Assembly (NCBI RefSeq): GCF_055900595.2
Contig: NZ_CM148325.1
Direction: 5' to 3' (one strand)
Length of the DNA: 64,000 nucleotides
Position 1 is the first letter of the stretch, and each line of letters starts with the position of its first letter. The notes beneath the pieces are model-generated. The model had not been told where the DNA came from, did not search any database, and saw nothing but the letters and a program-made list of their open reading frames with translations. The position numbers were made by a program, and so were the translations under genes. Shown piece by piece: positions 5,980 through 63,029 of this stretch.

Positions 5980-7017
5980 ATGAACGATGAGATGAAAGGT
6001 AAAAGCGGCAAGGTCAAAGTGATGTATGTCCGCAGTGATGATGATTCTGATAAACGTACCCATAACCCGCGTACCGGGAAAGGGGGCGGGCGTCCAGGAA
6101 AATCTCGTGCCGACGGTGGCCGTCGCCCCGCCCGCGATGACAAACAAAGTCAGCCCCGTGACCGCAAGTGGGAAGAGTCTCCGTGGCGCACGGTTTCCCG
6201 CGCGCCGGGTGATGAGACGCCGGAAAAGGCCGATCACGGTGGCATCAGTGGTAAAAGTTTTATTGATCCGGAAGTTTTGCGTCGTCAGCGTGCGGAAGAA
6301 ACCCGCGTCTACGGCGAAAACGCCTGTCAGGCACTGTTCCAGAGCCGCCCCGAAGCGATTGTTCGCGCTTGGTTTATTCAGAGCGTAACGCCACGTTTTA
6401 AAGAAGCATTGCGCTGGATGGCGGCAAACCGCAAAGCGTATCATGTGGTGGATGAAGCGGAACTGACCAAAGCGTCAGGCACGGAACATCACGGCGGCGT
6501 TTGCTTCCTGATCAAAAAGCGTAACGGTACAACCGTGCAGCAGTGGGTAAGTCAGGCAGGTGCGCAGGATTGTGTACTGGCACTGGAAAACGAATCTAAC
6601 CCGCATAACCTGGGCGGCATGATGCGCAGTTGCGCACACTTCGGCGTGAAAGGCGTTGTGGTGCAGGATGCGGCGTTGCTGGAATCCGGTGCGGCTATCC
6701 GTACCGCAGAAGGCGGTGCAGAGCATGTCCAGCCGATTACTGGCGACAACATTGTTAACGTGCTGGATGACTTCCGTCAGGCGGGTTACACCGTAGTGAC
6801 CACTTCCAGCGAGCAGGGTAAACCGCTGTTCAAAACCAGTCTGCCAGAGAAAATGGTGCTAGTGCTGGGTCAGGAATATGAAGGGTTACCGGATGCCGCA
6901 CGCGATCCGAACGATTTGCGCGTGAAGATTGACGGAACTGGCAATGTTGCCGGGCTGAATATCTCTGTTGCAACCGGCGTTTTGCTTGGCGAATGGTGGC
7001 GTCAGAACAAAGCCTGA
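5980..7017 (+). CDS. yfiF: SpoU/TrmH-family RNA 2'-O-methyltransferase YfiF with basic N-terminal extension
   Basis: 345 aa from Met at 5980; Lys/Arg-rich N-terminus, SpoU-type C-terminal domain; synteny. Confidence 0.85.
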
Positions 7018-7064
7018 TAAATCAGCCGGGTGGCAATTCTGCCATCCGGCGTTTTCCCTCAAAT

Positions 7065-10120: not shown

Positions 10121-10238
10121 TGTTCATGCCGGATGCGGCGTGAACGCCTTATCCGGCCTACAAGATCGTGCAAATTCAATATATTGCATGAGCCATGTAG
10201 GCCTGATAAGCGTAGAGCATCAGGCAGTTTTGCGTTTG
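10121..10238. repeat. REP/BIME (RIP-like) element: two inverted REP palindromes flanking an AT-rich spacer
   Basis: GCCGGATGCGGCGTGAACGCCTTATCCGGCCTACA ... GTAGGCCTGATAAGCGTAGAGCATCAGGCA; near-identical copy at 41201..41318. Confidence 0.85.
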
Positions 10239-41200: not shown

Positions 41201-41318
41201 TGTTCATGCCGGATGCGGCGTGAACGCCTTATCCGGCCTACAAATTATTGCAAATTCAAGATATTGCAATCTCCGTGTAGGCCTGATAAGCGTAGCGCAT
41301 CAGGCAATTTTTCGTTTG
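41201..41318. repeat. REP/BIME (RIP-like) element, near-identical copy of the one at 10121..10238
   Basis: Same two inverted REP palindromes around an AT-rich spacer. Confidence 0.85.
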
Positions 41319-49660: not shown

Positions 49661-50722
49661 ATGAAAACGATGCTGGCAGCTTATTTACCAGGAAATTCGA
49701 CCGTCGATCTGCGGGAAGTTGCGGTGCCGACACCGGGGATTAACCAGGTACTGATTAAAATGAAATCCTCCGGGATTTGCGGAAGCGATGTCCACTATAT
49801 CTATCATCAACACCGCGCCACAGCGGCGGCTCCCGATAAACCGTTATACCAGGGATTTATCAACGGTCATGAACCGTGCGGGCAAATTGTGGCGATGGGG
49901 CAAGGTTGTCGCCATTTTAAAGAGGGCGACCGCGTGCTGGTGTATCACATTTCTGGCTGTGGTTTTTGCCCGAACTGCCGTCGCGGTTTTCCTATCTCTT
50001 GTACTGGCGAAGGAAAAGCCGCTTACGGCTGGCAGCGTGACGGCGGTCATGCCGAATACCTGCTGGCGGAAGAAAAAGATCTGATCCTCCTGCCGGACGC
50101 GCTGAGCTATGAAGATGGTGCGTTTATCAGTTGCGGCGTTGGTACAGCGTATGAAGGGATTTTGCGCGGCGAAGTTTCCGGCAGTGATAACGTGCTGGTG
50201 GTCGGTCTGGGGCCGGTCGGGATGATGGCGATGATGCTGGCGAAAGGTCGCGGTGCAAAAAGGATCATCGGCGTTGATATGCTGCCGGAACGTCTGGCGA
50301 TGGCGAAACAGTTAGGGGTGATGGATCACGGCTATTTAGCAACGACCGAAGGTCTGCCGCAGATTATCGCCGAACTCACCCACGGTGGCGCGGATGTTGC
50401 GCTCGATTGTTCCGGTAATGCCGCAGGTCGCTTACTGGCGTTGCAATCCACTGCTGACTGGGGACGGGTGGTTTACATCGGGGAAACCGGAAAAGTGGAG
50501 TTCGAGGTTAGCGCTGATCTGATGCATCATCAACGGCGGATTATTGGCTCCTGGGTGACCAGTCTGTTCCATATGGAAAAATGCGCCCACGATTTAACGG
50601 ACTGGAAACTGTGGCCGCGTAATGCCATTACCCATCGCTTCTCACTGGAACAGGCAGGAGATGCCTATGCGCTGATGGCGAGCGGTAAATGCGGGAAAGT
50701 TGTGATTAACTTCCCGGATTAA
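49661..50722 (+). CDS. yphC: Zinc-dependent alcohol/polyol dehydrogenase YphC (MDR family)
   Basis: 353 aa from Met 49661; catalytic zinc motif GHEPCG and structural zinc Cys cluster (CGFCPNCRRG). Confidence 0.88.
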   Translation: MKTMLAAYLPGNSTVDLREVAVPTPGINQVLIKMKSSGICGSDVHYIYHQHRATAAAPDKPLYQGFINGHEPCGQIVAMGQGCRHFKEGDRVLVYHISGCGFCPNCRRGFPISCTGEGKAAYGWQRDGGHAEYLLAEEKDLILLPDALSYEDGAFISCGVGTAYEGILRGEVSGSDNVLVVGLGPVGMMAMMLAKGRGAKRIIGVDMLPERLAMAKQLGVMDHGYLATTEGLPQIIAELTHGGADVALDCSGNAAGRLLALQSTADWGRVVYIGETGKVEFEVSADLMHHQRRIIGSWVTSLFHMEKCAHDLTDWKLWPRNAITHRFSLEQAGDAYALMASGKCGKVVINFPD

Positions 50723-50733
50723 GGAGTCAGCGG

Positions 50734-51606
50734 ATGACCATCTATACCTTATCTCACGGGCCGCTAAAGCTGGACGTTTCTGACCGGGGCGGCGTCATCG
50801 AAGGCTTCTGGCGTGACGCGACGCCGCTCTTACGTCCCGGTAAAAAAAGCGGTGTGGCAACCGATGCCTCTTGTTTTCCGCTGGTGCCGTTTGCAAACCG
50901 GGTGAGCGGCAACCATTTTGTCTGGCAGGGGCGTGAGTATCAACTGCAACCGAATATTGAATGGGATGCGCACTATCTGCACGGCGACGGCTGGCTGGGC
51001 GAGTGGCAATGTGTCTCGCGCAGCGATGAAAGCTTGTGTCTGGTATATGAACATCGCACAGGTATTTATCAGTATCGGGTAAGTCAGGCGTTTCATTTAA
51101 CGGCAGATACGCTGACGGTGACGCTCTCTGTCACCAACCAAGGGACAGAGACGCTGCCATTTGGTACCGGCTGGCATCCTTATTTTCCGTTGTCACCACA
51201 AACGCGGATTCAGGCGCAGGCGAGCGGTTACTGGCTGGAGCGGGAGCAGTGGCTGGCGGGTGAGTTTTGCGAGCAGCTACCGCAGGCGCTGGATTTCAAC
51301 CAGTTCGCGCCGTTGCCGCACCAGTGGGTGAACAATGGCTTTGCCGGATGGAATGGTCAGGCCCGCATCGAGCAGCCGCAGGAGGGTTACGCTATCACTA
51401 TGGAAACGATGCCGCCCGCGCCGTGCTATTTCATCTTTGTCTCCGACCCCGCGTTTGATAAAGGGTACGCGTTTGATTTCTTCTGTCTGGAGCCGATGAG
51501 TCATGCGCCGGATGACCATCATCGCCCGGAAGGGGGTGATCTCATTGCGCTTGCGCCGGGGGAATCAACAACCTCAGAGATGTCGTTGCGGGTGGAGTTG
51601 CTGTAA
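50734..51606 (+). CDS. yphB: Aldose 1-epimerase-family protein YphB
   Basis: 290 aa; operon position after yphC. Confidence 0.8.
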   Translation: MTIYTLSHGPLKLDVSDRGGVIEGFWRDATPLLRPGKKSGVATDASCFPLVPFANRVSGNHFVWQGREYQLQPNIEWDAHYLHGDGWLGEWQCVSRSDESLCLVYEHRTGIYQYRVSQAFHLTADTLTVTLSVTNQGTETLPFGTGWHPYFPLSPQTRIQAQASGYWLEREQWLAGEFCEQLPQALDFNQFAPLPHQWVNNGFAGWNGQARIEQPQEGYAITMETMPPAPCYFIFVSDPAFDKGYAFDFFCLEPMSHAPDDHHRPEGGDLIALAPGESTTSEMSLRVELL

Positions 51607-51616
51607 TTTATAAAAT

Positions 51617-51705
51617 GCCTGATGCGACGCTTGCCGCGTCTTATCAGGCCTACAATCGGTGTTGGAACGGTAGGCCGGATCTGGCGTTCACGCCGCATCC
51701 GGCAT
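51617..51705. repeat. REP/BIME element (two inverted REP palindromes) between yphB and yphA
   Basis: GCCTGATGCGACGCTTGCCGCGTCTTATCAGGCCTACA ... GTAGGCCGGATCTGGCGTTCACGCCGCATCCGGCA. Confidence 0.85.
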
Positions 51706-51710
51706 CTTTC

Positions 51711-52133
51711 CTAACGTCGATCGAGAGAAATCGCTCCAGGCCCGGTAATTGCCAACAGCAGGAATGCGCCAGCGATACTGACATTCTTCCAGAAATTAAT
51801 CATATTTGGCCCAACCGCATCGCCGGTCATATCCCAGTAATGGTGACCAATCACCGCCGTACCCAGCGTGTAGAAAATAAACAGCACCGCCAGCGGACGG
51901 GTGAAAAAGCCAAGCACGATTAAAATCGCGGCGGGCACTTCCATAACTACCGCAATAATCGCTGCCAGCATCGGCATTGGCGCGCCCAGCGAGGCCATAT
52001 ATTGGACCGTACCGTCAAAGCCCATCATTTTGGGAAAACCAAAAATAATGAAAATTAAGACCACGGCGATACGGGCAATTAATAACAAAACGGGGCGGGC
52101 AGCACCAAAATCAAAATAACGTAGTGTGTTCAT
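51711..52133 (-). CDS. yphA: DoxX-family inner membrane protein YphA
   Basis: 140 aa from Met at 52133; four hydrophobic segments. Confidence 0.8.
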
Positions 52134-52229
52134 AACCAATCCCTTTGCAAGATAATGTGATTTAAACGTAATACACACTCTGGTACCTCGCCACGCCCCA
52201 GGCGTTGAGATATTCGCTAATTATCCTGG

Positions 52230-53441
<1,212 letters not shown>

Positions 53442-54254
53442 TTAAAGATCCAGCCCAGCCGCTACGTGGCGAATGCCGCGAATCGCTAAACCCGCATCAG
53501 CGTTGATCATCACACCGCTTAATGCGCGATTATTGCGCCGCGATGCCAACATCACATACGGACCCGTAAAATCCGCCGGTTGCGGGAAAAATTGCAGCGG
53601 TAATATGGCGGCAATTTTCTCCGGCGTCAGAGACTGCATTATCGAGGTTTCACTTTGCCCGAGCGCCTGTGGGCCGCGTAGATCGCTGGCCATACCGCAT
53701 GGCCCAACGCCATTCACCCGTACTTTAGGTGCCAGTTCATAGGCCAGTTGGCGAATAAGTCCGGTTGCGGCATGTTTACTGGCGGTGTACAGCGGGCCAC
53801 CGCCGCCGGGATACCAGGCAGCATTGGACAGGGTGAAAATCATGCTGCCTTCACTGGCGATTAACGCCGGAGCGCAGGCTTTTGCGCCCAGCAGGTAACC
53901 GAGTACGTTGACGTTAAACAGCTCGTGGAAGCCGGTTTCGAGCGTCTCTGCGGGAGTATTAACCAGTGAGGCATTGTGATCCCAGATGCCCGCATTGCCG
54001 ATAAAACAATCCAGCTTGCCAGAACGAGTCAGGATCTGATCGACCGCGCGTTGATAATCGGCATAGCAGGTCACGTTACCTTCCACCGCCAGAATATGTT
54101 CGCCAAATCGCTGACGCAGACTGGCGACTTTTGCCGCCGACAGTTCCAGCGTGGCAACCTGCGCACCTTCTTCGATAAATCGCTCGACCAGTGCCAGTCC
54201 TAATCCCGATCCGCCACCAGTAATAAAGATGGACTCGTTATGCAGATCGCTCAT
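53442..54254 (-). CDS. hcaB: 2,3-dihydroxy-2,3-dihydrophenylpropionate dehydrogenase (SDR family)
   Basis: 270 aa; SDR motif [11 protein letters not shown] and YxxxK. Confidence 0.92.
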
Positions 54255-54570
54255 GGCTGCGCCTCCGGTAAGTCGATGAAGATATCACCACCTTCAACGT
54301 GTACTGGATAAGTGGTTAGCGGATCGGTGGCGGGCAGGCATAACGCTTTCCCCGTTTTCAGGCAAAAACTGGCGGCGTGCAGTGGGCACTCTACCGTAGC
54401 ATCATCTTCCAGATACCCTTCTGACATCGACGCATTACCATGACTGCAACGATCGTTAATGGCATAAAACTCGCCGCCAACGTTGAACAGGGCGATGACG
54501 GGCGAGGTATCGATCCGGAGAGCCTCACCCTCCGGCACATCCGCAACGGGACACGCATAAATTCGATTCA

Positions 54571-54571
<1 letters not shown>
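54251..54571 (-). CDS. hcaC: Rieske-type ferredoxin of 3-phenylpropionate dioxygenase
   Basis: 106 aa; Rieske motif CSHGN...CPLHAASF. Confidence 0.93.
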
Positions 54572-56483
<1,912 letters not shown>

Positions 56484-56582
56484 CTATTTTTGTGCCATAA
56501 GGATGTTGCTGGTTGGTTGCTGATATGTGAAATAGTTAATTTCTACCAACTGAGACGTTTTTTCGATAACAGGGGGAAGGTG

Positions 56583-57473
56583 ATGGAACTACGGCATTTA
56601 CGCTATTTCGTCGCAGTGGCGCAGGCACTGAACTTTACCCGTGCGGCGGAAAAACTGCATACCTCACAGCCTTCGTTAAGCAGCCAGATCCGCGATCTCG
56701 AAAACTGTGTTGGTGTTCCGCTACTGGTACGTGATAAACGTAAAGTCGCGTTGACGGCGGCGGGAGAATGTTTTCTCCAGGACGCGCAGGCAATCCTGGA
56801 ACAAGCGGAAAAGGCCAAACAACGAGCGCGGAAAATTGTTCAGGAAGATAAGCATTTAATCATCGGTTTCGTTCCATCGGCGGAAGTGAATTTACTGCCA
56901 AAAGTATTGCCCATGTTCCGACTGAAACAGCCAGAAACTTTGATCGAATTGGTGAGTTTAATTACCACGGAACAGGAAGAAAAAATTCGCCGTGGTGAAC
57001 TGGATGTCGGCTTAATGCGCCATCCTGTTTATAGCCCGGAGATTGATTATCTGGAACTTTTTGACGAACCATTAGTGGTGGTGTTGCCGGTTGATCATCC
57101 TTTAGCACAAGAAAAAGAGATCACCGCCGCGCAGCTGGATGGCGTGAATTTCGTTAGTACCGATCCGGCGTATTCCGGTTCGCTTGCGCCGATCGTTAAG
57201 GAGTGGTTTGCGCAAGAAAACAGCCAGCCGAATATCGTCCAGGTGGCAACCAATATTCTGGTAACGATGAATTTGGTGGGGATGGGGCTTGGCGTAACTT
57301 TGATACCCGGTTATATGAATAATTTTAATACCGGGCAGGTGGTATTTCGGCCAATTGCCGGAAATGTGCCTTCCATTGCCCTACTAATGGCGTGGAAGAA
57401 AGGCGAAATGAAACCGGCATTACGAGATTTCATCGCCATTGTGCAGGAACGTTTGGCAAGCGTAACGGCATAA
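56583..57473 (+). CDS. hcaR: LysR-family activator of the hca operon
   Basis: 296 aa from Met 56583 with strong SD (AGGGGGAAGG); LysR HTH; divergent from hcaE. Confidence 0.9.
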   Translation: MELRHLRYFVAVAQALNFTRAAEKLHTSQPSLSSQIRDLENCVGVPLLVRDKRKVALTAAGECFLQDAQAILEQAEKAKQRARKIVQEDKHLIIGFVPSAEVNLLPKVLPMFRLKQPETLIELVSLITTEQEEKIRRGELDVGLMRHPVYSPEIDYLELFDEPLVVVLPVDHPLAQEKEITAAQLDGVNFVSTDPAYSGSLAPIVKEWFAQENSQPNIVQVATNILVTMNLVGMGLGVTLIPGYMNNFNTGQVVFRPIAGNVPSIALLMAWKKGEMKPALRDFIAIVQERLASVTA

Positions 57474-57633
57474 ATACGCAATAATTTTGCAAGGTGCGTT
57501 GTGGGGCGCAGCTTTTTTAGTGCTTGCGAACAGGCGTTACAGACATCGGGAAGCAGGCTCGAATATTCTTATTTTTCAACTTGCACCAACATTCGATTAA
57601 CCCCAGACTAACGCCTCCTGACGGGAGGGACTC

Positions 57634-62897: not shown

Positions 62898-63029
62898 CCG
62901 AGGTTGCCTGATACGGCGCTTAACGCGTCTTGTCAGGCCTACATTGTACTGAACCCCTGGTCGGATAAAGTGTTTACGCCGCACCCGACAACAGGTACAA
63001 ACGCCACGATAAAAAAATGGCACTGAAGG

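Follow-up and report, generated by a model that had tools for sequence, protein, structure and literature searches.

The two inverted REP palindromes between yphB and yphA are best described as one BIME-2-type unit, in which an inverted z2 REP and a y REP are separated by a 16-nt linker, and which is the remnant of an older cluster and a putative two-way 3'-end element for the convergent genes that surround it (estimated probability of about 0.85). The DNA analyzed, hereafter the window, is a stretch of 64,000 nt of contig NZ_CM148325.1 from NCBI RefSeq assembly GCF_055900595.2, read on one strand from 5' to 3'. The initial annotation had placed two inverted REPs at 51617-51705, between the end of the yph operon and the convergent yphA gene. 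Both the sequence and the repeat search show that these coordinates are exact, with the CTAC of the first REP facing the GTAG of the second, and the gene names and strands of RefSeq agree with this location. The names are backed by the RefSeq annotation of K-12 and of Z0117EC0005, the latter being identical over the stretch. In the RefSeq gene order, yphC and yphB are on one strand and the convergent yphA, hcaD and hcaB are on the other. The spacer between the stop codons of yphB and yphA has 104 bp in the window, and its components are listed in Table 1.

Table 1. Components of the yphB-yphA spacer in the window, with the genes on either side.
Feature	Position	Strand	Description	Basis
yphB	50734..51606	+	aldose 1-epimerase family, 290-aa ORF; final gene of the yph operon	RefSeq annotation of Z0117EC0005 and K-12
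yphB stop codon	51604-51606	+	TAA	
A/T-rich spacer	51607..51616		10 nt, TTTATAAAAT, from yphB stop to first REP	sequence
z2-type REP	51617..51653	-	37 nt	sequence; length and AA/GC mismatch match published z2 (PMC8266576)
Short linker	51654..51669		16 nt, AATCGGTGTTGGAACG, from CTAC to GTAG	sequence
y-type REP	51670..51704	+	35 nt	sequence; y class of 35 nt (PMC8266576)
Spacer	51705..51710		6 nt, TCTTTC, from y REP to yphA stop	sequence
yphA stop codon	51711-51713	-	TAG (CTA on the plus strand)	
yphA	51711..52133	-	DoxX-family inner membrane protein, 140 aa, convergent to yphB	ORF; RefSeq WP_001094726.1

When read on the minus strand, the z2 REP is GTAG-GCCTGAT-AA-GACGC-ggcaa-GCGTC-GC-ATCAGGC. 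Given that it lies on this strand, the plus strand shows an inverted REP (iREP), whose palindrome at 51617-51649, GCCTGATGCGACGC-ttgcc-GCGTCTTATCAGGC, is followed by the CTAC end at 51650-51653. The y REP reads GTAG-GCCGGAT-CT-GGCG-ttca-CGCC-GC-ATCCGGC-A on the plus strand, with GTAG at 51670-51673 ahead of the palindrome GCCGGATCTGGCG-ttca-CGCCGCATCCGGC at 51674-51703. In the repeat search, both palindromes have 14-nt arms that are 86% complementary, and their lengths (33 nt and 30 nt) are those of the imperfect stem-loop palindromes of 30-40 nt that characterize REPs. The GTAG located 5' of the stem foot in published REPs (PMC3333891) is found in the y REP on the plus strand and in the z2 REP on the minus strand. 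The AA-GC mismatch of the stem is present in the z2 REP (GC/TT on the plus strand), whereas the bulge of the y REP is CT/GC in the window, leaving a C-C mismatch and a G-U pair, and AA in K-12, strain E10 and the outgroups. The pair is extragenic, being located between two stop codons, and highly repeated, with a 96-nt query containing the y REP giving a median of 29 matches per genome. A REP regular expression with a variable loop retrieved seven canonical REPs and one non-canonical palindrome (7012-7050) from the 64-kb window. This corresponds to 16 matches with both strands counted, whereas 100 first-order Markov simulations gave 0.12 matches on average. The 131-nt junction is predicted to fold into two separate hairpins on either strand, with energies of -55.4 and -56.0 kcal/mol (z = -4.6 and -5.7), and none of 200 shuffled sequences was as stable.

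The REPs of E. coli are divided into y (35 nt), z1 (29 nt) and z2 (37 nt) classes, with a GTAG lead and an AA-GC mismatch (PMC8266576). These are combined in BIME-2, with y and z2 REPs, a short linker and a number of units per locus that differs among strains, and in BIME-1, with y and z1 REPs and a long linker (PMC3333891). In the window, the y REP of 35 nt and the z2 REP of 37 nt are inverse to each other (tail to tail), and the linker, typed by its length of 16 nt, is short. A y REP, an inverted z2 REP and a short linker make one BIME-2-type unit. The strain-variable number of units is a further likeness to BIME-2 (PMC3333891, PMC8266576), given that an extra decayed unit is present in the 159-bp allele described below. 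The element differs from BIME-2 in having a single unit in the window instead of the typical tandem copies, and a y bulge of CT/GC instead of AA/GC. An inverted REP pair that includes a y REP is also found in BIME-1, but there the partner is a 29-nt z1 REP and the linker is L, of approximately 35 nt and in published examples often with an IHF site. This identity was rejected, given that the partner REP has 37 nt (z2) and the linker 16 nt. A REPIN was likewise rejected because the two REPs are of different classes and, at minimum energy, fold into two hairpins instead of one long hairpin, and mobility of the REPIN kind was rejected because orthologs of the unit are found from E. albertii to E. 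coli. Comparison with the Rfam family naRNA4 (RF02564) gave best scores of 33.5, 32.1 and 28.7 bits, under the gathering threshold of 59.5 bits. The naRNA4 RNA originates from the REP325 element (bioRxiv 10.64898/2026.03.23.713779), and the resemblance is due to the common REP module only. The MG1655 record has no repeat features at the junction or in the neighboring 24 kb, which is uninformative with respect to the cataloguing of REPs in K-12. Two mechanical ORFs run across the REPs, one at 51615-51923 on the plus strand (102 aa) and the other at 51519-51698 on the minus strand (59 aa), with translations such as MPDATLAASYQAY... These are REP-derived translations, of a kind sometimes mis-annotated as proteins, and are not genes.

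Alignment of the window with K-12 and strain E10 defined three alleles of the junction, which differ by whole REP units, and their distribution was surveyed with junction-specific 96-nt queries in 5,426 complete E. coli genomes. The one-REP allele, of the K-12 type, has a spacer of 47 bp that contains only the y REP without its GTAG (junction sequence AAAATGCCGGATAAGG). It was found in at least 4,207 genomes, this value being a lower bound because the K-12 query misses one-REP alleles with diverged flanks. In evenly spaced samples this allele accounts for approximately 90% of the genomes (26/29 and 52/60). The three-part allele has a spacer of 159 bp and occurs in 469 genomes, which include the B2-like strains ATCC 11775, Nissle 1917, NU14 and E10, while the two-REP allele of the window, with its spacer of 104 bp, occurs in eight. 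A query for the one-REP junction with B2-type flanks was excluded from these counts, given that the 32-nt flank seeds alone and three-part alleles join to 100% coverage. The y REP is the sole REP kept in every allele, and the z2 REP is missing from the K-12-type genomes. The solitary y REP of K-12 is orthologous to that of the window and has the same spacing to each of the two stop codons as in the window, but it is accompanied neither by the z2 REP nor by the linker and the GTAG. Over the 1 kb of 51200-52200, an identity of at least 99% to the window was found in eight of the 5,426 genomes. These are presumably the same eight genomes that carry the two-REP allele, which would make this allele one rare haplotype.

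The ancestry of the unit was addressed with a degenerate yphA pattern, which led to 23 loci from a species-representative genome collection. In E. albertii and E. whittamii, yphB and yphA are convergent and separated by a three-part spacer of 159 bp, and for this reason the 159-bp form is regarded as ancestral. In the record of Escherichia sp. E1V33, which stops within this region, the y REP and the linker are present together with at least the end of the z2 REP. The 16-nt linker is orthologous in E10, E. albertii, E. whittamii and E1V33, with four variable positions. At this site, then, a partly decayed BIME cluster of 159 bp would already have been present before E. coli, E. albertii and E. 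whittamii diverged. The leftmost segment of this ancestral form, TGCCGGATGC-aca-GGCCTAC, resembles a y iREP with an internal deletion, and its arms are paired with the y REP in the long allele.

The two shorter alleles are related to the long form by different deletions. The allele of the window differs from the 159-bp form by a deletion of 55 nt, from AAAATGCC|GGATGC to CGATGCC|TGATGC, between repeats that have 5 nt in common (ATGCC) or 11 nt with one mismatch, ATGCC(G/T)GATGC. In the lineage of the window, this deletion would have taken out the leftmost decayed unit. The K-12 allele corresponds to a deletion of 112 nt between two perfect GCCGGAT repeats, and in most E. coli this independent event would have left the y REP alone. 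The REP of K-12 is preceded by AAAT because the 112-nt deletion fused the flank directly to GCCGGAT. Given that the deletions from the long form are different, the short alleles are independent, and the allele of the window is not a step towards that of K-12. In both cases, the deletion resembles an event of the slipped-strand or microhomology type between REP arms. As judged from these comparisons, the unit is an old remnant and not a recent insertion, and the two-REP form is a rare deletion derivative of a longer cluster.

The junction was also found to be a target of insertion. In two records of the evenly spaced sample, the match stopped or started in the middle of the y REP, and both have an IS1397 in the loop of this REP. 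The copies at the junction (L008:3808-5243 and L009:2066-3501) have target duplications of at least two kinds, TTAC and TCAC, one insertion being on the three-part background and one on the one-REP background. With a query for the IS/REP junction, IS1397 was detected in the y REP loop of this locus in 59 genomes, including strains 536 and F11, with the right-hand junction of some of them having 98 nt instead of 96 nt, a length difference of 2 nt. This pattern points to several independent insertions of IS1397 into the y REP loop. According to Clement et al. (1999), as cited in PMC3333891, IS1397 inserts specifically into the palindromic units of BIMEs. With three length alleles, REP-arm deletions and IS1397 in these 59 genomes, the junction varies across strains, and the invariance that would have contradicted the initial annotation was not observed.

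With respect to function, the REP pair would probably provide each of the two convergent transcripts with a hairpin at its 3' end. Each REP would form a stable bulged hairpin in either transcript, and the pair would serve as a two-way 3'-end element for the yphB and yphA transcripts, where the hairpins would stop 3'-to-5' exonucleases and attenuate the read-through of each gene into its convergent partner. The hairpins start within 15 nt of the stop codons, at 10 nt from that of yphB and 6 nt from that of yphA. Every deletion spares the outermost arms and, therefore, in all alleles a structure starts 10 nt past the yphB stop and one ends 6 nt before the yphA stop. The flank at 51607..51616 is unchanged across the three alleles and the outgroups. 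Given that about 90% of E. coli do not have the z2 REP, the second hairpin is dispensable.

Published observations on other REPs bear on this function. A REP within 15 nt of the stop codon is reported to lower the translation of the upstream gene, as the work of Liang et al. (2015) is described in PMC12306157. REPs between convergent genes correlate with raised expression of both genes, 78 REPs are found inside predicted bidirectional terminators, and REP325 is both a terminator and an mRNA stabilizer, with partial termination and protection of the mRNA upstream of it, the effects of REPs being strongly context-dependent and terminal REPs not being generally tied to longer half-lives (bioRxiv 10.64898/2026.03.23.713779). 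REP325, located between yjdM and yjdN, belongs to the same repeat family and is a model for the terminator and mRNA-stabilizer role. It differs from the present element in having multiple units between tandem genes of the same operon, versus a single pair between convergent genes.

A canonical intrinsic terminator was considered and is not favored, given that a simple consensus terminator scan flagged nothing at either REP and the y hairpin on the plus strand has no U-tract, the sequence after it, AUCUUUCC, being a poor tract. The sequence after the z2 hairpin on the minus strand, AUUUUAUAAAUU, is terminator-like by eye, and the minus-strand reading of 51607..51616 is a U-rich tract, AUUUUAUAAA, immediately 3' of the z2 hairpin in the yphA transcript.

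It is unlikely, but with a weight that has to be taken into account, that the pair is neutral debris, i.e., the decaying remnant of a selfish REP/BIME element without any role for yphB and yphA, where the hairpins persist through the rarity of deletion and through gene conversion from other REP copies. Such an explanation is in line with the repeated shrinkage of the cluster, whose 159 bp were reduced to 104 bp in one lineage and to 47 bp in the majority of E. coli, with the leftmost ancestral unit being already an apparently internally deleted REP, with the disruption of the y REP by IS1397 in 59 genomes that keep the flanking genes, and with the mutation of the y REP bulge from AA to CT in the window. 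Nonetheless, every genome examined, across species, keeps at least one intact hairpin at the same distances from both stop codons, and the stems vary far less than the rest of the element. When eight orthologous junctions were compared (window, E10, K-12, DA33135, E69, E. albertii, E. whittamii and E1V33), variation was found in 1/46 stem columns, where the change keeps a G-U pair, versus 14/41 columns of the loops, bulges, tetranucleotides and linker (Fisher p = 8e-5, in a small sample where the structure was derived from the same eight sequences). The conservation of the stems could reflect gene conversion or concerted evolution with hundreds of REP copies, and not selection. The genome-wide association of convergent-gene REPs with higher expression (bioRxiv 10.64898/2026.03.23.713779) also argues against neutral debris.

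A role at the level of DNA, where the pair of y and z2 REPs would act as a DNA gyrase binding and cleavage site that relieves the positive supercoiling between the convergent units, is considered improbable. High-affinity gyrase sites are multi-unit BIME-2 arrays. The location of the element exactly between convergent genes is what this role predicts, and gyrase cleaves BIME-2 in vivo according to Espeli and Boccard (1997), as cited in PMC3333891 and PMC8266576. However, approximately 90% of E. coli keep the y REP alone at this locus, and a single unit may not suffice for gyrase.

The least probable explanation, to which very little weight is given, is a recent mobile insertion in which TnpA-REP (RAYT) placed the z2 REP and the linker beside a solitary y REP, in a REPIN-like manner. 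The two-REP form is indeed restricted to 8/5,426 genomes, and TGCC|TGAT, the published cleavage site of type I TnpA-REP in z iREPs (PMC3333891), is found at the left edge of the z2 REP. Against it, the z2 REP, linker and y REP are orthologous in B2-like E. coli, E. albertii and E. whittamii, with the record of E1V33 also having the z2 end, linker and y REP, so that the unit is old and the one-REP state derived. The change from the ancestral form is a loss of 55 nt with no gain, and a TnpA-REP/RAYT event is unsupported because the left boundary, AAAATGCC|GGAT, has on neither strand the C|T dinucleotide, which is indispensable for cleavage (PMC3333891).

Returning to a two-way 3'-end element retained from an old cluster, the alleles with three, two and one units could be a natural regulatory series, in which the hairpin located 10 nt past the yphB stop and the presence of a gyrase-type site formed by y and z2 would change from one allele to the next; this proposal is regarded as quite doubtful. 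If it is true, the output of YphB and YphA would differ by lineage with no change in coding sequence or promoter. If the one-REP junction arose repeatedly on different flank haplotypes, this would suggest that BIME contraction is selected for or is brought about by a directed mechanism. The polarized series of 159, 104 and 47 bp, together with its outgroups, could be used as a natural test of the recent proposal that the expression of both convergent genes is tuned by the REPs between them. At the junction, a known repeat family is behaving as the literature describes, with respect to the number of units, the deletions between REP arms and the targeting by IS1397. The additions that are specific to this locus are only the polarized allelic series, the rarity of the allele of the window (8/5,426) and the recurrence of IS1397. 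Their significance is small beyond the documentation of known BIME behavior at one locus.

The initial annotation had also stated that gene content tends to vary at such junctions, and its interpretation is supported with one caveat. The REP units and IS1397 vary at the pair itself, but the adjacency of yphB and yphA is near-universal (at least 5,272/5,426 genomes, with E. albertii and E. whittamii showing it too) and the large varying block, hcaR-hcaEFCBD, is located beyond yphA. This block is a presence/absence polymorphism. The yphA-hcaD junction, with hcaR-hcaEFCBD adjoining, is found in 4,342/5,426 genomes and the yphA-hcaT junction in 1,045, the latter arrangement, with yphA followed by hcaT and not by hcaD, being that of E10, BH100 and SK1402. 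In the loci without hca, the segment at 52216-57546 (hcaR-hcaEFCBD) is replaced by approximately 198 bp (L002:2572-2769) that contain a degenerate REP-like palindrome. In the hca-positive form, the REP expression detected no REP at either end of hcaR-hcaEFCBD in the 64-kb window. Beside yphA, hcaD is absent in E. albertii, E. whittamii and E. coli E69, and present in Escherichia sp. E1V33, E. coli SCPM-O-B-8794 and Pseudocitrobacter. The breakpoint at approximately 52216 is on the far side of yphA from the REP pair; for this reason, the variation at the pair concerns REP content and IS, and that of operon content lies one gene further. The proposal of a yphA-hca block is consistent with Pseudocitrobacter vendiensis, where yphA adjoins hcaD and there is no yphB within 1.9 kb on the other side of yphA.

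Separately, the segment of yphC-yphB (49700-51623) was found to be unusually divergent for one species, with an identity of 94.7% to K-12 and of approximately 92% to E10, a B2-like strain. An identity of 99% is reached by 15 genomes on the yphA-hcaD side, where the best match is a different strain from that on the yphB side. This suggests a recombination boundary in the vicinity.

Other repeats were observed in the window. Two near-identical elements with the layout of BIME-1 are located at 10128-10225 and 41208-41305, each with a y iREP and a 29-nt z1 REP separated by a 35-nt linker that contains ...GCAAATTCAAtATATTGCA... At 62906-62990, a second z2 iREP is followed by a decayed y-like REP without GTAG (GTCGGATAAAGTGTTTACGCCGCACCCGAC), this segment being 76% identical to the yphB-yphA unit of E10. 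The palindrome at 7012-7050, GCCTGATAAATCAGCCGGGTGGCAATTCTGCCATCCGGC, is a loose match to the REP expression and not a canonical REP, having no GTAG and a different stem, and it may be a terminator.
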